A DNA stretch of 58,927 nt, taken from contig JAZSPY010000036.1 of NCBI GenBank assembly GCA_045537705.1, positions 1 to 58,927 on the forward strand, given 5' to 3'. Source of the DNA: Clostridia bacterium (GTDB lineage Bacteria > Bacillota > Clostridia > Christensenellales > QALW01). A program made the position numbers and the translations under genes. Below are positions 1,342-33,118 of the stretch, one piece after another. How positions within the stretch are numbered: position 1 is the first letter of the stretch; each line of letters starts with the position of its first letter. The notes below the pieces were generated by a model. The model was not told where the DNA came from. It saw nothing but the letters and a program-made list of their open reading frames with translations, and made no database searches.

Positions 1342-3519
1342 ATGAAAACAATAAACAATGCTTTAGTATGGAATCCCTTAGAAATCAAACTTGTAAGTAC
1401 AAAAAAGTACGAAAATCCTTATCTTGATGTTGAAATTAACGCAACTTTCAAACACGTTAGCGGCAAAGAAATTAACGTTATGGGCTTTTGGCATAGTGAA
1501 GATATCTTTGCAGTAAGATTTACCCCATCTTTAGAAGGCACTTGGGAATATGATATTACATGCACTGATAAAGATAATAAGGATTTATTCTTAAAAGGCA
1601 GTTTTGTTGCTAAAAAAGAAGAATCAGAACTTTTAGCAAGAAAACACGGATTTGTTACTGATAGGCATAATAACAGATATTTTACTTATGATGATGGAAC
1701 GCCTTTTTATTGGCTTGCTGATACCCATTGGCAAGCACCTAACTACGAAACTATTTTTGATTGTAACTACCCCGGTTGCGATTGCAAAAATCAGTTTAAG
1801 CATGAGGTAGATGACAGACTTAAAAAAGGCTTTACCGTTTATCAGACGTATTTTGATGCTTCTGAAAGTGATGGTGGCGGTCAGGCAGGACTTTTACCTT
1901 CGCTTTGGGATAAAAAGTTTACTAAACCATCAAGCGAATTTGCTAACAAGGTTGACGTAATGTTTGAATATCTTGATAGCGTTGGCATGGCTATTGCATT
2001 AGGATTTGGCGTTCACTATATTACCGTTCAGAATATGGATGAACAGGATCTTTTCCGTTTTGCAAAATATATTATCGCAAGATACGGTTGCTATAATATA
2101 ATCTGGATTATTGCCCAGGAAATCACAAGGCTTCGTCCATCGCGTATTGAAGGCAAAACTGTTTTTGATACGTATCTTGAACTTGGTCAATTAGTCAGGG
2201 ATTATGATGGCTATAAACATCCCGTTTCTGCACATATGGACGTAATGGAATTTGCTGATGAAAGGGCAAAAAGGCTTTCAGATCAGCCTTGGCACACTTA
2301 TTGGATGACTCAGGGTGGCCACGGTGAAGCTATGGTGCCTAAAAAGAAACACTATAAGGAATATGCTGAAGCAAAGGATTACTTTAAGCCTGTTATTGAA
2401 GGCGAATTAAATTACGAAGATCTTAACTGCGGATATTTTGCTGATAACAGAGGCGCCCGTGTTTCTGCATGGAACGCTATGTTTGCAGGTTGTGCCGGTT
2501 ACACTTATGGCGCAACAGGTATCTGGGCAAACGGTTATTCAACAGAAATCAGCAAAGGCTGGCTTGGTGAAAAAACTTCATACAGTTATGAACCTTGGTA
2601 TATGGGGCTTTCTAAACCGGGCTCTTTTGAGATGCAGTATTTAAAAGAATTCTTTATGAATATAAAGGATTGGTATAATTTTGTTCCAAGTTATTACGAT
2701 ACGTCATTAGGTGATTTTTTAGAAGATGAAAATAAACTTATGATGCGTATTAAGGATGATACTGTTGCTTGCTATTTCAGAAATACCGATTTAACAACAG
2801 GTAAGGTTTTACAGTTAAACAAGAATAAAACCTATACTGCTTATTGGTTTGATGTTAGAACAGGCAACTATATAAAGATTGATACAATTTCAGGCGTTAC
2901 GGAATATGATATTCCTCAAAAGCCTGCATTAGACGATTGGGCATTTATCCTAACTGCTCAAGAATTAAAGAATATTACTGTTGTTGAAAAGTTTGAAAAT
3001 AAAACTATAATAACAGGTGAAGTTATTGCACCCAAAAACGTAAGCGCAATAGGTGGCATTTATTATAAAGATGGCAAGTTAATTGATAACACAGAATATC
3101 TTTATGATGGTAAAAAGGAAACAGTATGGATTCCTTTTGCGCAAAGAAGCACACAAACTATTATTTACGACCTTGGTAAACAGTATGAATTAGGCGGAGT
3201 TGAAATCGTTCCTAATGAAAATACAGCTTTACCACCTTACAGAGTTGAGGTTTCTAATGACGGGCAAAAGTGGTTTACACAGGCCGATACTAACTCTCAG
3301 GGTGCAAAGTTCCACAAAGGAAAAGTTACAAGTAAAATTACAGGCACATGGCAGTTTGTAAAAATAATGCTTCATAACAAATACGTAATTTCTGAAAAAG
3401 AAGCCGAAGAAGCAGATTATAAAGTGTTTGTTAATACAATTTATGTGGATAGGGGAAATAAACCTACTCATTATGCTGAAACTCAAATTCGTGAGATTTC
3501 AGTTTACGGTAAAAATTAA
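1342..3519 (+). CDS. GH140-like glycoside hydrolase (DUF4038 apiosidase-like core). It has an N-terminal DUF5060-type Ig domain and a C-terminal F5/8 type C (discoidin/CBM32-like) domain, and no signal peptide.
   Basis: 725-aa ORF with RBS aggaga upstream. It carries the DDGTPFYWLADTHWQ motif typical of DUF4038, and the C-terminal TQTIIYDLG...YRVEVSNDGQKW is discoidin-like. The N-terminus is not hydrophobic. Confidence 0.6.
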   Translation: MKTINNALVWNPLEIKLVSTKKYENPYLDVEINATFKHVSGKEINVMGFWHSEDIFAVRFTPSLEGTWEYDITCTDKDNKDLFLKGSFVAKKEESELLARKHGFVTDRHNNRYFTYDDGTPFYWLADTHWQAPNYETIFDCNYPGCDCKNQFKHEVDDRLKKGFTVYQTYFDASESDGGGQAGLLPSLWDKKFTKPSSEFANKVDVMFEYLDSVGMAIALGFGVHYITVQNMDEQDLFRFAKYIIARYGCYNIIWIIAQEITRLRPSRIEGKTVFDTYLELGQLVRDYDGYKHPVSAHMDVMEFADERAKRLSDQPWHTYWMTQGGHGEAMVPKKKHYKEYAEAKDYFKPVIEGELNYEDLNCGYFADNRGARVSAWNAMFAGCAGYTYGATGIWANGYSTEISKGWLGEKTSYSYEPWYMGLSKPGSFEMQYLKEFFMNIKDWYNFVPSYYDTSLGDFLEDENKLMMRIKDDTVACYFRNTDLTTGKVLQLNKNKTYTAYWFDVRTGNYIKIDTISGVTEYDIPQKPALDDWAFILTAQELKNITVVEKFENKTIITGEVIAPKNVSAIGGIYYKDGKLIDNTEYLYDGKKETVWIPFAQRSTQTIIYDLGKQYELGGVEIVPNENTALPPYRVEVSNDGQKWFTQADTNSQGAKFHKGKVTSKITGTWQFVKIMLHNKYVISEKEAEEADYKVFVNTIYVDRGNKPTHYAETQIREISVYGKN

Positions 3520-10458: not shown

Positions 10459-10533
10459 GGTGGAGATAAGCGGATTTGAACCGCTGGCCTGTTACATGCG
10501 AAGCAACCGCTCTACCGCCTGAGCTATACCCCC
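10458..10533 (-). tRNA. tRNA-Ala, anticodon CGC, with 3' CCA encoded
   Basis: The 76-nt minus-strand sequence GGGGGTATAGCTCAGGCGGTAGAGCGGTTGCTTCGCATGTAACAGGCCAGCGGTTCAAATCCGCTTATCTCCACCA folds as a cloverleaf. It has the G3:U70 Ala identity pair, anticodon loop TT-CGC-AT and T-loop TTCAAAT. Confidence 0.93.
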
Positions 10534-23633: not shown

Positions 23634-23662
23634 TTGACACTTTTGCTTCTTTACACTATAAT
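23634..23662 (+). promoter_or_regulatory. Consensus SigA promoter of rpmH-rnpA
   Basis: TTGACA (23634-23639), 17 nt, TATAAT (23657-23662). Confidence 0.75.
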
Positions 23663-23880: not shown

Positions 23881-24225
23881 TTGAAAAAACAGGATATGCT
23901 TAAAAAAAATAAAGAGTTCCGTTACGTTGTTTCAAGGGGTAAATCCTATCAGGCACCTAATATGGTGCTTGTTTGCGCAAAATCACGGGCAGGTGTTAAA
24001 GTTGGGTTTTCGGTAAGCTCAAAATTAGGTAATGCCGTTGTCCGTAACAGAACAAAACGAATAATGCGTGGGGGGCTTACGCCCTTAATGCCTGTTCTAA
24101 ATCAGGATAAATGGTATTTCTTTATTGCAAGAAAGGGTCTTATAGGCAAGACAAGCACTTTTTGCTATGAAGAAATGCGTTCGCTTTTACAAAAGGCAGG
24201 GTTATTAAATGAAGAATCCTGTTAA
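23881..24225 (+). CDS. rnpA: Ribonuclease P protein component
   Basis: TTG start after taggaggtg. The protein is small and basic with the [13 protein letters not shown] motif, and the gene sits directly after rpmH. Confidence 0.9.
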
Positions 24226-29442: not shown

Positions 29443-29534
29443 TTCCTGTGTTGCGCAAAAGATAAAAGCGCGGTCATTTACGTTCTTGTAAATAAAAGGT
29501 TTATTTGATATAATATATTTAAGAGGTGTTAATT

Positions 29535-30209
29535 TTGAACGTAAACGAAATTTTATCTAAGGTGGATCACACTTTATTAAGTCAGGATGCTACCTGGCAG
29601 GATATAAAAGAGATTATTGATGATGGCATTAAATTTAAAACTGCATCAGTTTGCATTCCGCCTTGCTTTATAAAACAGGCAAAGGAATATGCAAAAGAAA
29701 AAATAAAACTTTGCACGGTTATTGGGTTTCCTAACGGTAACGCTACAACCGAAAGCAAGTGTTTTGAAACTGAAAATGCAGTTAAAAACGGCGCTGACGA
29801 AATTGATATGGTAATAAATATCGGTTTTTTAAAAGAAAAACGCTATGATGAAGTTTTAAACGAAATCAATTTAGTTAAAGCAAGTTGCCAAGGAAAACTT
29901 TTAAAGGTAATAATTGAAACCTGCCTTTTAACCAAAGACGAAAAAATAAAAATGTGCCAAATTATTGAAGAATCAAATGCCGATTATATTAAAACGTCAA
30001 CAGGGTTTTCTTTTGATGGCGCAAAAAAGGAAGATATAATATTATTTTCTGAACATATTAAAACAAAAAAGATTAAAGCGGCAGGCGGTATTAAGACGTT
30101 AAAAGATGCCGAAGAATTTATACTTTTAGGCGCAAGCCGACTTGGCACAAGCAGAATAGTTAAACTTTTAAAGGAGAATGAAAATGAATTATCCAACACC
30201 GCATATTGA
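29535..30209 (+). CDS. deoC: Deoxyribose-phosphate aldolase
   Basis: VDHTLL near the N-terminus and the Schiff-base region DYIKTSTGF. The likely start is TTG 29535, 8 nt after aagagg (the track gives GTG 29526). Confidence 0.88.
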   Translation: MNVNEILSKVDHTLLSQDATWQDIKEIIDDGIKFKTASVCIPPCFIKQAKEYAKEKIKLCTVIGFPNGNATTESKCFETENAVKNGADEIDMVINIGFLKEKRYDEVLNEINLVKASCQGKLLKVIIETCLLTKDEKIKMCQIIEESNADYIKTSTGFSFDGAKKEDIILFSEHIKTKKIKAAGGIKTLKDAEEFILLGASRLGTSRIVKLLKENENELSNTAY

Positions 30210-30897
30210 TGCAAAGCCATCTGATTTTGCTTCAACTGTTTTAATGCCCGGCGATCCCAAACGGGCACAATTTATTGCCGAAAACTTTTTAACAGATGCC
30301 CGTTTAGTAAACGACGTTCGCGGCGTGCAAGGCTACACAGGTTTTTATAAGGGTAAAAAGGTTAGCGTTATGGCAAGTGGAATGGGTATGGCTTCAATGG
30401 GCATATATTCCTATGAGCTTTTTAATTTCTTTAACGTTGAAAACATTATCCGTGTTGGTTCTGCCGGGGCGATGAGGGAGAACGTAAACGTTCGTGATAT
30501 TGTTATTGCCCTTGGGGCGTCTTCTGATTCTAACTTTCATAAACAATATAAATTAAACGGAACGATCGCACCACTTTGCAGTTATAAACTTTTAGAAAAA
30601 ACAGTTGAAAAAGCAAAAGAAATGAATTTAACTTATCACGTTGGCAATATTCTTTCAACGGATATCTTTTATAATGAAAACGATACCACAAAAGAATGGG
30701 GGAAGATGGGCGTTTTAGCAGTTGAAATGGAAAGCGCAGCCCTTTATCTTAATGCCCAAAGGGCAAACAAAAACGCTATAACTATCTGTACAGTTTCAGA
30801 CCATCTGATAAACGGTGAAAGCCTTACTGCAGAAGATAGACAAATTTCATTTAAGGAAATGATGCTGTTAGCCTTAGAAACTGCAATTGAATTATAA
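30184..30897 (+). CDS. deoD: Purine nucleoside phosphorylase, DeoD (hexameric) type
   Basis: TPHIDAK...VLMPGDPKRAQFIAE...VRG..GYTG.YKG matches the E. coli DeoD layout. ATG 30184 follows ggaga (the track gives 30178). Confidence 0.9.
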   Translation: MNYPTPHIDAKPSDFASTVLMPGDPKRAQFIAENFLTDARLVNDVRGVQGYTGFYKGKKVSVMASGMGMASMGIYSYELFNFFNVENIIRVGSAGAMRENVNVRDIVIALGASSDSNFHKQYKLNGTIAPLCSYKLLEKTVEKAKEMNLTYHVGNILSTDIFYNENDTTKEWGKMGVLAVEMESAALYLNAQRANKNAITICTVSDHLINGESLTAEDRQISFKEMMLLALETAIEL

Positions 30898-30903
30898 AAA
30901 AAT

Positions 30904-30927
30904 AATCCCCGCACGTTTGCGGGGATT
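30904..30927. terminator. GC-rich 10-bp hairpin terminator. The run of T/U is much better on the minus-strand side.
   Basis: aatccccgca-cgtt-tgcggggatt. The minus-strand reading continues ATTATTTTTTT, while the plus-strand reading continues only TAATAC. Confidence 0.8.
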
Positions 30928-30996
30928 TAATACGTAATAAAGTATTTAATAATTTATATGTTAATGTCTATTCAATTGTCTTAAGTTTTAACTAAA

Positions 30997-31256
30997 TAGT
31001 ACATCGGACTACTTTCCTTTTCTTAGATTTTAAAGTTCAAAAGTTTTTTCATTAAGGAAACACATCCTTTTTTAAAGTAACTTAGAAACTTTTGCTCCGC
31101 TTTCTCTTGCGGGATTAAGCTGATTAGAACATTGGACTAATTCCTTTCTTTCAGATTTCTAAATGGAACCTTTTTTTCATAAAAGCACGCCTTTCATTTA
31201 GAAATTAAGTTCTTAAACCGCTTAGTACATTGGACCAATTTCCTTTCTATAGATTT
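30997..31256. repeat. Three dispersed copies of a diverged module
   Basis: 34-nt cores lie at 30997-31030, 31125-31158 and 31223-31256. They read tagtacatcggactactttccttttcttagattt, tagaacattggactaattcctttctttcagattt and tagtacattggaccaatttcctttctatagattt, about 80% identical by eye. Weaker similarity continues for about 35 nt downstream. Confidence 0.85.
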
Positions 31257-31336
31257 GGTTCTTTTTTTTTGTTTTCCGGCAAAGCCACATGCTTTTTGCC
31301 TTTAACACTTCACTTCTTTCTCTTATTTTCAATTAC

Positions 31337-31365
31337 ATTATAACAAACCGAAAAACGTTTGTCAA
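31337..31365 (-). promoter_or_regulatory. Perfect consensus SigA promoter on the minus strand
   Basis: The minus strand reads TTGACA-aacgtttttcggtttgt(17)-TATAAT. An A/T-rich, UP-like tract lies upstream at 31366-31430. Confidence 0.75.
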
Positions 31366-31442
31366 TAGTAAATTTAAAAAAAGTTCATATTTTTTTCATA
31401 AAATATCTAAAAATAAAATTTTCGCATATTTTCACTTTTGTC

Positions 31443-31471
31443 TTGACTGATTTTAAAGTTAGGGGTAAAAT
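31443..31471 (+). promoter_or_regulatory. Predicted SigA promoter of the mgtE leader
   Basis: TTGACT (31443-31448), 17 nt, TAAAAT (31466-31471). This leaves a leader of about 273 nt. Confidence 0.6.
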
Positions 31472-31505
31472 AGTAAAAGAATAAATTTAAAAAGGGGTGA
31501 ACATA

Positions 31506-31583
31506 ATGGAAGACGGAAGTAAAAGCACTGTTCCTGTCAGCATGCGTAACAGGGTTTTTCATTATGTTCGTATTTATATATAA
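31506..31583 (+). CDS. 25-codon upstream ORF in the mgtE leader (MEDGSKSTVPVSMRNRVFHYVRIYI); a possible regulatory leader peptide
   Basis: Strong SD AAAGGGGTGA at 31491-31500, 5 nt before ATG 31506. The stop is TAA 31581-31583. There is no homology evidence. Confidence 0.3.
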   Translation: MEDGSKSTVPVSMRNRVFHYVRIYI

Positions 31584-31631
31584 ACGTAATAAAATATCCT
31601 ATTACGCGCAAGTTTTAGGCGGAAACAGTAT

Positions 31632-31695
31632 CCATTTGTTAATATGCACAGTTATGCATAATATAAAACAAATGGGTATTTTTTATGCCTTTTTT
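31632..31695 (+). terminator. Leader terminator/attenuator upstream of mgtE
   Basis: CCATTTGTT (31632-31640) pairs with AACAAATGG (31667-31675), with an inner stem TATGCA/TGCATA. It is followed by GTATTTTTTATGCCTTTTTTG. Confidence 0.65.
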
Positions 31696-31750
31696 GATAA
31701 GAAACAGTGTACCTTTCGCAATTTATTAAAAAAAGGAGGTACATAGAAAA

Positions 31751-33118
31751 ATGGAGAACAAAGATTTTATTTCAGAAAGAATTTATGAGTTGATTAACCA
31801 AAAACAACCTAACAAGATACTTGAAATTCTTTCAACCCTTCAGCCACAGGATATTGCTGAAATTTTAAACGCAGATTTTTTTGAACAAAGGCAAAAGAAC
31901 CTTATATTCAGGTTATTAAAAAAAGATCTTGCGGCACAAGTTTTCGTTGAATTACAAAACGATATGCAGGAAGATCTTATAAAAGGTTTTTCCGATAACG
32001 AACTGCACTTAATGTTAAACGAACTTTTTGTTGATGATGCAGTTGATATTATTGAAGAAATGCCTGCAAGCGTAGTTAAAAGAATATTAAAGAACTGCAC
32101 AAAGGATATGCGGGGCGATATAAATAATATTCTTGCATTTGATAAAGATACTGCAGGCAGTGTAATGACTCCTGAATATATTGCCTTAAAATCTGATATG
32201 ACGGTGAAAGAGGCTTTTGCACGTATCCGCAAAGAAGGTATAGACAGCGAAACCATATATACCTGTTACGTGCTTGATAGAAGCAGGCATATTCAAGGCG
32301 TTATAACTGTTCGTGAGCTTCTTTTAGCTAAAGAAGATGCAATAATCAAGGATATAATGAACGAAAACGTTATATTTGTTGAAACTGTTTCTGATAAAGA
32401 AGAAGCTGCGAAGATTCTTAAAAAATACGATTTTCTTGCGGTGCCTGTTGTTGATAAGGAAAAGCGCCTTGTTGGTATTATCACCGTTGATGATGCTATT
32501 GACGTTCTTGTTGAAGAAACTACCGAAGATATTGCTAAAATGGCGGCAGTTCAGCCAATGGAGCAATCGTATTTTAAAACAAGTGTATTTAAACATTCCT
32601 TAAGCAGAATTTTATGGCTTATTGTTTTGATGATCTCTGCCACCGTAACCGGCTTTATCATTACTTACTATGAAAATGCTTTTCAGGCAGTACCGCTTTT
32701 AATTGCGTGCCTTCCTCTTTTGATGGGAACAGGCGGTAACTGTGGCTCACAGGCATCAACAATGGTTATTCGCGGGCTTGCCATTGATGAAATGAGCACC
32801 AGGGATGTTTTAAAAGTATGGTTTAAAGAAATCCGTATTTCTTTAATCGTTGGCATAGTTCTTGCAATAGTAAACACAATAAGGGTGTTCGTGCTTTACG
32901 GATTTTCAAATGAAATCATCTTGCTTGCAATAACCAATGCATTGGCGCTTTTGTTTACTGTTTCCCTTGCACAAACTTTAGGGTGCCTGTTGCCAATTGG
33001 CGCTAAAGCAGTTAAACTTGATCCTGCCATTATGGCGGCACCGTTAATCACAACTATCGTTGATGCGTTAAGCGTTACGGTGTTCTTTGCCTGTGCAGTT
33101 TGGGTGTTTGGAATGTAA
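31751..33118 (+). CDS. mgtE: Magnesium transporter MgtE
   Basis: MgtE_N domain, tandem CBS domains and a C-terminal 5-TM domain with the GTGGNCGSQ motif. Confidence 0.92.
   Translation: MENKDFISERIYELINQKQPNKILEILSTLQPQDIAEILNADFFEQRQKNLIFRLLKKDLAAQVFVELQNDMQEDLIKGFSDNELHLMLNELFVDDAVDIIEEMPASVVKRILKNCTKDMRGDINNILAFDKDTAGSVMTPEYIALKSDMTVKEAFARIRKEGIDSETIYTCYVLDRSRHIQGVITVRELLLAKEDAIIKDIMNENVIFVETVSDKEEAAKILKKYDFLAVPVVDKEKRLVGIITVDDAIDVLVEETTEDIAKMAAVQPMEQSYFKTSVFKHSLSRILWLIVLMISATVTGFIITYYENAFQAVPLLIACLPLLMGTGGNCGSQASTMVIRGLAIDEMSTRDVLKVWFKEIRISLIVGIVLAIVNTIRVFVLYGFSNEIILLAITNALALLFTVSLAQTLGCLLPIGAKAVKLDPAIMAAPLITTIVDALSVTVFFACAVWVFGM

Follow-up and report, generated by a model that had tools for sequence, protein, structure and literature searches.

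The 58,927-nt stretch analyzed here (the window; contig JAZSPY010000036.1 of the Clostridia bacterium assembly GCA_045537705.1) carries between deoD and mgtE a predicted stand-alone RNA gene, encoded by the minus strand from roughly 31330 to 30896 and about 435 nt long. Judged by sequence comparison, this RNA represents an undescribed family of uncultured gut and rumen Clostridia, with members in several genera. It contains repeated modules, each of which reads as an oversized ribosome-binding site fused to an open reading frame (ORF) of minimal length. We tentatively favor the reading that the RNA is a multivalent "minigene array", which would capture ribosomes or 30S subunits and thereby serve as decoy or buffer for the anti-Shine-Dalgarno (anti-SD) sequence of the 16S rRNA; we give this reading somewhat less than an even chance.

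On the minus strand, the promoter core has TTGACA (31365-31360) and TATAAT (31342-31337) separated by 17 nt, the last three being TGT; it matches the consensus at 12/12 positions and also provides the TG of an extended -10 element (31345-31344). A consensus scan finds no other 12/12 site in 30000-32500, and the perfect pattern TTGACA-N17-TATAAT occurs at only two sites in the whole window. When up to one mismatch is allowed, five sites are found compared to 1.1 expected. An initial annotation of this DNA, made from the sequence alone, had described a textbook promoter with an UP-like tract and a single other promoter of equal quality, and both statements hold. The second perfect site (23634-23662, plus strand) is located about 220 nt upstream of the ORF 23881-24225 and had been assigned to rpmH. 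Transcription of the RNA gene is predicted to start near 31330 (G). At the other end, the 10-bp GC hairpin with minus-strand U-run, also described initially, was recovered at 30927-30904, with six G-C pairs, a loop of 4 nt and AUUAUUUUUUU following on the minus strand. We counted covariation after realigning the homologues to a covariance model (alignment A5). There, 6/9 pairs of the terminator stem show changes on both sides and the covariation score exceeds all 500 shuffles as well as every slid register. Together with the preceding hairpin H3, 8/14 pairs are changed on both sides, a score reached by 0/500 shuffles. The single 435-nt sequence folds better than 100/100 shuffles (z = -3.9). 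The ORF listing agrees with the earlier statement that the deoD-mgtE gap holds no minus-strand ORF of at least 60 aa.

Homologues (loci L001 and following) were collected in two ways. The contigs of L001-L009 were reached via deoD homologues with 77-91% identity. Further loci came from a module pattern scan of the GTDB species representatives followed by nhmmer, which added eight more "Clostridia bacterium" metagenome-assembled genomes (MAGs; L022, L030, L043, L051, L052, L067, L079, L080). The copies at these 17 loci are full-length and amount to 12 distinct sequences of 395-511 nt from uncultured Clostridia MAGs, i.e., the sample is small and includes several close relatives; L055 holds a partial copy. 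Two MAGs of Dorea (L021, L024) and two of Eubacteriales (L034, L068) contain shorter relatives, each with promoter, 3-4 modules and terminator; these elements are kept by all homologues. At 14 homologue loci the promoter is still a perfect match (L001-L006, L008, L009, L022, L030, L052, L067, L079, L080), and in the L001-L009 set the gap, including promoter, three modules and terminator, aligns at 82% mean column identity. The initial annotation had named conservation in close relatives as a point on which its proposal could fall; region and promoter are both conserved. Compared with the window copy, the nucleotide identity of the RNA declines from 0.89 to 0.60, slightly below that of glnS in these genomes (0.91-0.77). 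Conservation is much higher in the modules than in the spacers, which is in part a matter of ascertainment because members were collected with a module-based pattern.

Searches in other collections added little. The GenBank phage collection gave no match to the RNA gene. A pattern scan of IMG/VR returned one chance match in a phage coding region, met at four loci, besides one possible relative: L102 (UViG_3300010163_003146, 2460-2760, minus strand), a high-GC contig filed as viral. It shows TTGACA-17-TACAAT and has AGAAAGGAAAAGGUGAGUCCGAUGUACUAAG directly at the predicted 5' end of an about 280-nt terminator-bounded unit upstream of mreB, which may be a single-module relative. The pattern scan of metagenome contigs produced one chance match in a coding region (L100); this collection evidently lacks the organisms in question. 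A glnS-anchored look-up in four more relatives (L106-L109) found no copy within ±10 kb, and synteny is therefore unusable for collecting members.

The gene context of the unit bears on whether it acts on its neighbors, i.e., as a leader gating antisense transcription into deoD-deoC, as the initial annotation had considered, or as a divergent regulator of mgtE. In the window and the relatives nearest to it, the unit indeed has deoD as convergent and mgtE as divergent neighbor, with the order deoC-deoD-gap-mgtE-glmM in L001-L008. But in L009 (deoD-cdd-pdp-gap-mgtE) the convergent neighbor is pdp, and elsewhere it is glnS (L043, L080), ileS (L034, L068) or the gene of an Xaa-Pro aminopeptidase (L021, L024). 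The divergent neighbor in L030, L067, L051, L052 and L079 is an operon of a ribbon-helix-helix (RHH) protein and clpB. In other contexts the unit faces an AraC-type gene or nothing, and mgtE has its own promoter and a conserved leader. Since the flanking genes differ between lineages, we regard the unit as a free-standing gene and reject the antisense gate, as deoD adjoins the unit only in the closest relatives; a cis role of either kind is hardly credible. With regard to the RHH/clpB operon, which is conserved in these five related MAGs, it lies 80-190 nt from the RNA gene (L030 3393-4109, L067 4616-5329, L051 2602-3243, L052 2251-2889, L079 3790-4428) and encodes a protein of about 212-238 aa with an N-terminal RHH-like segment, followed by ClpB. 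The intergenic region common to both may be co-regulated.

A repeat search within the RNA gene yields one three-copy family of 44 nt (D1; 31256-31213, 31158-31115, 31030-30987), whose copies are spaced 98 and 128 nt apart and show 73-75% identity to the reference copy, in agreement with the three diverged copies reported before. No further copies were found elsewhere in the 58.9-kb window, GUCCAAUG has neither targets nor extra copies there, and TRF detects no tandem-repeat array in the region. The module consensus is AAAUYU-N2-3-AG-AAAGGA-N3-5-(G/A)GUCC-A-AUG-U-N-C-U-R-A, where the spacer between GGA and GUCC is free in sequence and varies in length by one nucleotide only. The AUG is kept in 50/54 modules. 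Modules 1 and 2 are two-codon minigenes, i.e., AAAGGA-N9/10-AUG-UAC/UUC-UAA, a pattern found in 12/12 full-length homologues with UAC, UGC, UUC or UUU as second codon and UAA or UGA as stop. In detail, all homologues have AUG-UAC/UGC-UAA/UGA in module 1 (31230-31222 in the window) and AUG-UUC/UUU/UAC-UAA/UGA in module 2 (31132-31124). The second codon is U-N-C/U (Tyr, Phe, Cys), with His in some module-3 copies. The emphasis of the initial annotation on an aromatic codon is only partly right. The ORF of module 3 (31004-30981) has seven codons in the window and ten (M[YH]x..DN*) in more distant homologues. A fourth, 5'-proximal module 0 is intact as GACGUGAGUCCAAUGG in L009, L030, L067, L052 and L079 and degenerate in the window group. 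Four modules are taken as the ancestral number; the window form has three.

Two candidates in and around module 1 were discarded. ORFs of 36 and 32 aa that run through it are not conserved (stop in L008, no AUG in L001, 90-nt insertion in L009); a gene caller had annotated the 32-aa ORF in L001. The palindrome AUUGGUCCAAU, considered as DNA-binding site or kissing element, is absent from modules 2 and 3 and from the homologues.

Upstream of the AUG, each module is predicted to complement nearly the full length of the free 3' tail of 16S rRNA. The free 3' tail in Firmicutes reads 5'-GAUCACCUCCUUUCU(A)-3', as documented for Bacillus subtilis (PMC5427494), and the 3'-terminal RNase T1 fragment of Clostridium acetobutylicum 16S rRNA is AUCACCUCCUUUCU (PMC1904277). 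For each start codon, the preceding 22 nt were folded against GGAUCACCUCCUUUCU. In silico, the module sequence AGAAAGGA pairs with the 3'-terminal UCCUUUCU, with (U)GGUCC pairing with GGAUCA. The resulting duplex is bipartite, its two arms being separated by a small internal loop or 3-4-nt gap, and the register of the arms is exact with respect to the rRNA for module 2 and one nucleotide out for modules 1 and 3. GUCC conservation in front of the AUG is thus explained by pairing with the 16S tail. The spacing between SD core and AUG is canonical, i.e., the AUG follows 8 nt after the GGAGG equivalent and one nucleotide past (U)GGUCC.

The predicted duplex energies for the window are given in Table 1. 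Module 1 exceeds all 41 genes of the window, and a value of -11 kcal/mol or stronger is attained by only 1.8% of the AUGs on the plus strand. For the 54 modules of 17 sequences the mean is -13.9 kcal/mol compared to -5.2 for shuffles, and 50/54 modules pair with at least 4 of the 6 nt of GGAUCA. As independent support, distant relatives arrive at the same tail complement with other letters, namely GGUGAGUCC or CGUGAGUCC in place of AAUUGGUCC. Their variants AAAGGGGUGAGUCC (L034, L068), AAAGGUGAGUCC (L102) and AAAGACGUGAGUCC (module 0) contain GGUGA of the perfect complement AAAGGAGGUGAUCC instead of AAUUG, and the L102 module shows the strongest predicted duplex of all (-20.8 kcal/mol). In the first module of L034 (270-300) and L068 (1490-1520, both plus strand), AAAGGGGUGAGUCCAA and the downstream UAAGCAGUUUUAA are kept and AAG replaces AUG; here the complement to the 16S tail persists in the absence of a start codon.

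The modules might instead mimic the translation initiation regions of one or more target mRNAs and titrate a translational repressor other than the ribosome, i.e., an RNA-binding protein or small RNA that normally occludes these regions; the immediate stop codon would then only curb wasteful translation of the decoy. The retention of GAGUCCAA with AAG for AUG in L034 and L068 would fit such a ligand, as would the sponge-like layout (stand-alone gene, strong promoter, 3-4 motif copies between hairpins). The conserved bases beyond the needs of a ribosome site (GUCC, the U at +4, AAAUCU, UAAGCAG) likewise suggest sequence-specific recognition. The GUCC, however, is already covered by the 16S-tail pairing, and in related DNA amounting to about 250 kb none of the genes carries a module-like initiation region; matches with more than ten codons lack the module. 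In addition, GGA occurs 7 times in the 435 nt versus 5.5±1.7 in dinucleotide-preserving shuffles (A-N-GGA 4 versus 2.3±1.3). GGA is thus not enriched, let alone at the many copies well above chance of CsrB/Rsm-type sponges, which makes a ligand of the CsrA/Rsm type unlikely. Overall, we consider a non-ribosomal target of the decoy unlikely.

Two 9-codon ORFs, MKKRFHLEI (ORF A) and MKKLLNFKI (ORF B), precede modules 2 and 3 and are present as initially described. Start, length and stop of ORF A are kept in 8/12 sequences (M-x-K-R-[FY]-x-[LF]-E-I*); a shifted stop extends it to 10 codons in L052 and L079 and to 17 in L001, and L051 lacks the AUG. ORF A is also kept where hairpin H5, which includes part of it, is absent (L009, L080, L043). 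For ORF B, the 18 nt from AUG to AAAUC are free of indels in 13 sequences and carry many substitutions, and its stop lies 18 nt upstream of the module 3 AUG. In L001 (4718-5160, minus strand) the ORF A stop is lost (UGA to UAU), so that the frame continues into AUG-UUC-UAA of module 2 and yields MKKRFHLEIYKKGISPMF*; neither this extended ORF A nor the 32-aa ORF annotated there is conserved.

One may ask whether the unit is a polycistronic micropeptide mRNA in which the 9-10-residue peptides (MKKRFHLEI, MKKLLNFKI, M[YH]x..DN) matter and the 2-codon modules load ribosomes or stabilize in cis, as in the LEE1 and axe-txe minigenes. Such cis-acting 2-codon minigenes are documented (PMC3262186, PMC8708949). 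ORFs A and B have their own SDs, start with AUG-AAA-AAA and span 9 codons in most homologues, ORF A independently of H5, and position 7 is Leu or Phe encoded via UUA, CUC, CUU, UUG or UUU. On the other hand, there is no third-position bias (ORF A entropies 0.40/0.43/0.44, ORF B entropies 0.67/0.75/0.88), and we accordingly reject selection at the peptide level for both ORFs. Residues in the middle of the peptides are exchanged freely, the window group has a shortened ORF 3 with the sequence downstream still conserved, and L001 has lost the ORF A stop. The Dorea and Eubacteriales relatives lack the 9-codon ORFs altogether and keep the modules. A micropeptide mRNA is quite unlikely on these grounds. 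Because start, length and stop are kept without third-position excess, it seems to be the translation of ORFs A and B rather than their product that matters, if they matter at all; the modules, being universal, form the functional core.

Assuming a ribosome-capturing minigene array, each module would tether a 30S subunit or ribosome via a bipartite duplex of 12-16 bp. The captured ribosome would make only fMet-Tyr or fMet-Phe, would terminate 6 nt on, probably still tethered, and could rebind. ORFs A and B would feed terminating ribosomes to the next module by termination-reinitiation, since their stops lie only 3-5 nt ahead of its SD, and ribosomes held on the RNA would keep it stable and long-lived. 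For natural 2-codon minigenes with strong SDs, it is known that they are really translated, that ribosomes reinitiate without dissociating, and that occupancy protects and stabilizes the mRNA (PMC3262186; PMC8708949). In Bacillus, ribosomes at strong SDs block RNase J1 (PMC5737220). The purpose of the array could be to buffer or store ribosomes, to sense the supply of Tyr/Phe-tRNA, or something else. That the modules bind ribosomes and are translated, that binding and not the peptide is the function, and any physiological role are what we infer from the sequence. Two hypotheses of the initial annotation, a regulatory or sponge RNA and a cluster of translated mini-ORFs, may converge here, since the 16S-tail complement, which it had missed, links them.

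Several points weigh against ribosome capture. The conserved G of GUCC makes a G·U pair at a position where A would allow Watson-Crick pairing, an odd choice if selection acted on pairing only. A ribosome model also leaves the conserved AAAUCU ahead of the SD and the conserved UAAGCAG behind module 1 unexplained. An abundant ribosome trap would come at a real cost to the cell, and a 16-bp helix that ends 2 nt from the P-site codon may fit poorly into the mRNA channel of the 30S subunit. Furthermore, the 16S tail was taken from other Firmicutes, as the fetched loci hold no 16S 3' end. Finally, the modules were picked by their CC-A-AUG core, which by itself guarantees two of the pairs in the GGAUCA count, and four of the 54 (AAGCC, CAGCC, UUACC) have a weakened second anchor. 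A dedicated "ribosome sponge", whose 3-4 modules would pair with essentially the whole free 16S tail in a tethered futile two-codon cycle, is possible but doubtful.

Outside the modules, the RNA is organized by hairpins. Alignment A2, the module table and per-sequence folds give the 5'-3' order module 0, H1, module 1, ORF A, module 2, H2, ORF B, module 3, tail, H3, terminator. H1, H2, H3 and the terminator are found in nearly all members with differing sequences. H1 is present in 10/12 homologues, where its foot pairs covary (GGC/GCC, AAC/GUU, UAAC/GUUA). The global consensus fold of A2 (RNAalifold) reaches -6.3 kcal/mol and is essentially the terminator alone, with covariation found locally in H1, H2, H3 and the terminator. 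The inverted repeat described before around the upstream region of the middle module was found as H5, with 14 nt at 93% complementarity. It is limited to the window group and the L030 group, whose 5' arms differ.

The tail between module 3 and H3 has the consensus GACAAYUnAAUA..UUAACAUA, in which GACAA and most of YUnAAUA are identical in 13/13 sequences of A2. A further reading is that of a base-pairing small RNA whose seed would be the single-stranded 3' segment (GACAAUUnAAUA...UUAACAUA) or another inter-module stretch, with the modules as STAB-SD-type stabilizers that load ribosomes and block RNase J1 and RNase Y. The tail is nearly invariant in the 13 sequences and predicted to be unpaired, and in L030, L052, L067, L079 and L102 a module is no more than about 25 nt away from the predicted 5' end, a position typical of 5' stabilizers. 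For Bacillus, SD-like stabilizers of this kind are well known (hbs, PMC5737220; reviews on STAB-SD are PMC3997798 and PMC4113751). However, the modules and not the spacers are the best conserved and only universal part, the tail is missing in the Dorea relatives, and no target complementary to tail or modules was found in the window. Three to four stabilizers for a 25-nt seed would also be extravagant, and we rate a seed-based small RNA as rather improbable.

With regard to known RNA families, an Rfam 15 scan of the window at gathering thresholds returns only the tRNA at 10461-10533, i.e., no match to 6S, tmRNA, RNase P, SRP, T-box, M-box, purine or preQ1 riboswitches or ribosomal protein leaders. 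A permissive scan (E<10, 30700-31900) gives noise, the best hits being eukaryotic miRNA models with 26 bits versus an 84-bit threshold. ARAGORN finds no tRNA or tmRNA in the RNA gene. The covariance search that the initial annotation had listed as a check thus assigns no family. Its core picture of a strongly promoted, terminator-bounded orphan transcript with repeated modules outside known RNA families is supported, also by the conservation of promoter, modules and terminator in at least 12 distinct homologues with differing neighborhoods. In the literature on ribosome or anti-SD sponge RNAs and on repeated-SD small RNAs in Clostridia, we found no description of the family. Its components, i.e., minigenes, STAB-SD-type stabilizers and repeated-motif sponges, are known. 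Their combination is not: a dedicated, conserved, strongly promoted transcript that, as predicted, forms a super-SD two-codon minigene array without cargo gene.

In the layout of a single module, the RNA gene resembles two-codon minigenes (lambda bar, the LEE1 leader of enterohemorrhagic Escherichia coli, axe-txe mg2), which share SD, AUG, one sense codon and stop; bar of phage lambda is such a two-codon minigene. These are single elements in mRNAs or phage transcripts that act in cis on the next gene or become toxic only when Pth is limiting. In contrast, the RNA gene has 3-4 copies on a dedicated transcript, no long cistron downstream of the modules, and an SD complement that covers the whole 16S tail. 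STAB-SD elements and related Bacillus 5' stabilizers (cryIIIA, ermC, hbs) resemble the modules in that an SD-like sequence, complementary to the 16S 3' end over a long stretch, binds the 30S subunit without protein product and stabilizes against 5'-3' decay (PMC5737220, PMC3997798, PMC4113751). Such extended complementarity without a protein-coding ORF is predicted here with both ends of the tail involved. The location differs: STAB-SDs occur as one copy near the 5' end of the protein-coding mRNA they stabilize, whereas the copies of the RNA gene are spread over a non-coding unit without cargo gene. In the window, about 75-330 nt separate the modules from the predicted 5' end, and only module 0 of distant members is 5'-proximal.

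Sponge RNAs are the second group for comparison. CsrB is a repeated-motif sponge that titrates CsrA. Like CsrB/RsmZ and CrcZ, a sponge RNA titrating Hfq (PMC4063720), the RNA gene is stand-alone, strongly promoted, and repeats a short motif between hairpins. The factors titrated by these sponges act at translation initiation. Their motif, either GGA in hairpin loops or A-rich stretches, is present at high density; here, an entire initiation region including start and stop codons is repeated, with the ribosome as predicted ligand. Type III antitoxin RNAs (ToxI, CptI) of gut Firmicutes are small, strongly transcribed, terminator-ended RNAs with repeats of about 35-45 nt, and thus similar in repeat size, predicted strong transcription and terminator. 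The ToxI repeats, however, are tandem and near-identical with a toxin gene (ToxN/CptN/TenpN) following them, while the copies of the RNA gene are 98-128 nt apart with 73-75% identity, no toxin gene is present, and the downstream genes are convergent housekeeping genes. Finally, leader-peptide attenuators (erm/cat, pheL-type) also have tiny ORFs with their own SDs beside hairpins that contain ORF sequence, as in H5. In contrast to these, the RNA gene has no regulated downstream gene (in most loci the downstream gene is convergent), its context varies, and H5 is lineage-specific, occurring in two lineages only.

Table 1. Features of the RNA gene (5' to 3') and predicted duplex energies with the 16S rRNA 3' tail.
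Feature	Position	Strand	Duplex (kcal/mol)	Remarks
A/T-rich UP-element-like tract	31366..31395	-		5' of -35 hexamer; AAAAAWTATGAAYTTTTTWTAAAT kept in 12/12 full-length homologues
Sigma-A type promoter	31337..31365	-		TTGACA-17-(TG)nTATAAT; consensus match and conservation
Module 0	31300..31323	-		GAGAAAGAAGUGAAGUGUUAAAGG; degenerate remnant of fourth, 5'-proximal module; aligns in A2 to intact GACGUGAGUCCAAUGG
Hairpin H1	31278..31300	-		GGCAAA...UUUGCC; per-sequence folds
Module 1	31222..31256	-	-18.1	AAAUCU-AUAG-AAAGGA-AAU-UGGUCC-A-AUG-UAC-UAA; super-SD and 2-codon ORF MY*; repeat D1
Hairpin H5 (inverted repeat)	31155-31168 / 31192-31205	-		3' arm is 3' half of ORF A
SD of ORF A	31186..31195	-		GAAAGGCGUG; AAGGRCGUG conserved
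ORF A	31151..31180	-	-9.2	9 codons, MKKRFHLEI*; start, length and stop mostly kept
Module 2	31124..31158	-	-14.9	AAAUCU-GAAAG-AAAGGA-AUUA-GUCC-A-AUG-UUC-UAA; super-SD and 2-codon ORF MF*; repeat D1
Hairpin H2	31097..31113	-		CCGC...GCGG; covaries: GCGC/GCGC, GCAC/GUGC, UUGCC/GGCAA
SD of ORF B	31061..31069	-		AAGGAUGUG; nearly invariant in 13 sequences
ORF B	31023..31052	-	-13.5	9 codons, MKKLLNFKI*; M-x-K-x-x-x-[LFC]-K-I* in most sequences
Module 3	30981..31030	-	-12.1	AAAUCU-AAG-AAAAGGA-AAGUA-GUCC-G-AUG; 7-codon ORF MYYLVKT*; repeat D1
Conserved single-stranded tail	30957..30980	-		GACAAUUGAAUA...UUAACAUA; consensus nearly invariant in A2
Hairpin H3	30929..30946	-		AAUAC...GUAUU; per-sequence folds; helix 1 of A5, 2/5 pairs changed on both sides
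Intrinsic terminator	30896..30927	-		10-bp stem and U-run; overlaps opposite-strand deoD stop codon
41 window genes			mean -7.3, best -15.8	

The neighboring genes provide two side observations. On the plus strand, a promoter-like site TTGACT-17-TAAAAT (31443-31471) precedes mgtE, followed by a strongly conserved leader of about 270 nt (region 31443-31750). The leader holds a small ORF behind an SD (31506-31583, MEDGSKSTVPVSMRNRVFHYVRIYI*), whose start is buried by a long hairpin (31499-31514 / 31554-31569). In L055, where MgtE is 73% identical, this hairpin is kept via compensating changes and the ORF begins with MMDDGSS. The leader shows no match to the M-box or any other Rfam family and is therefore a candidate for an undescribed leader or riboswitch. 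At the other side, the ORFs of deoC (29526-30209) and deoD (30178-30897) overlap by 32 nt as listed (30178-30209). In L001-type contigs deoC is called shorter (174 aa) and deoD has 237 aa; since a protein look-up finds no exact match on record for the 239-aa deoD product of the window, the true deoD start is probably two codons downstream of the listed one.

If the RNA is a ribosome sponge, it could buffer the pool of initiation-competent ribosomes, keep 3' exonucleases away from the 16S 3' end in idle subunits, or link tRNA-Tyr and tRNA-Phe charging to the availability of ribosomes. It would then be for the ribosome what 6S RNA is for RNA polymerase and CsrB for CsrA. Ribosome sequestration, if confirmed, would be categorically new. 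To our knowledge, work on two-codon minigenes and over-long SD:anti-SD duplexes has so far been confined to curiosities (lambda bar, LEE1, axe-txe) and synthetic constructs; the family offers a natural case in which their role in vivo can be addressed. Read conservatively, it is a well-delimited RNA gene family with a testable sequence logic in hosts with almost no known regulatory RNA. If the trap reading is true, it would be the first dedicated bacterial RNA with the anti-SD tail as its ligand, and would add a new global layer of translation control in abundant uncultured gut and rumen Clostridia.

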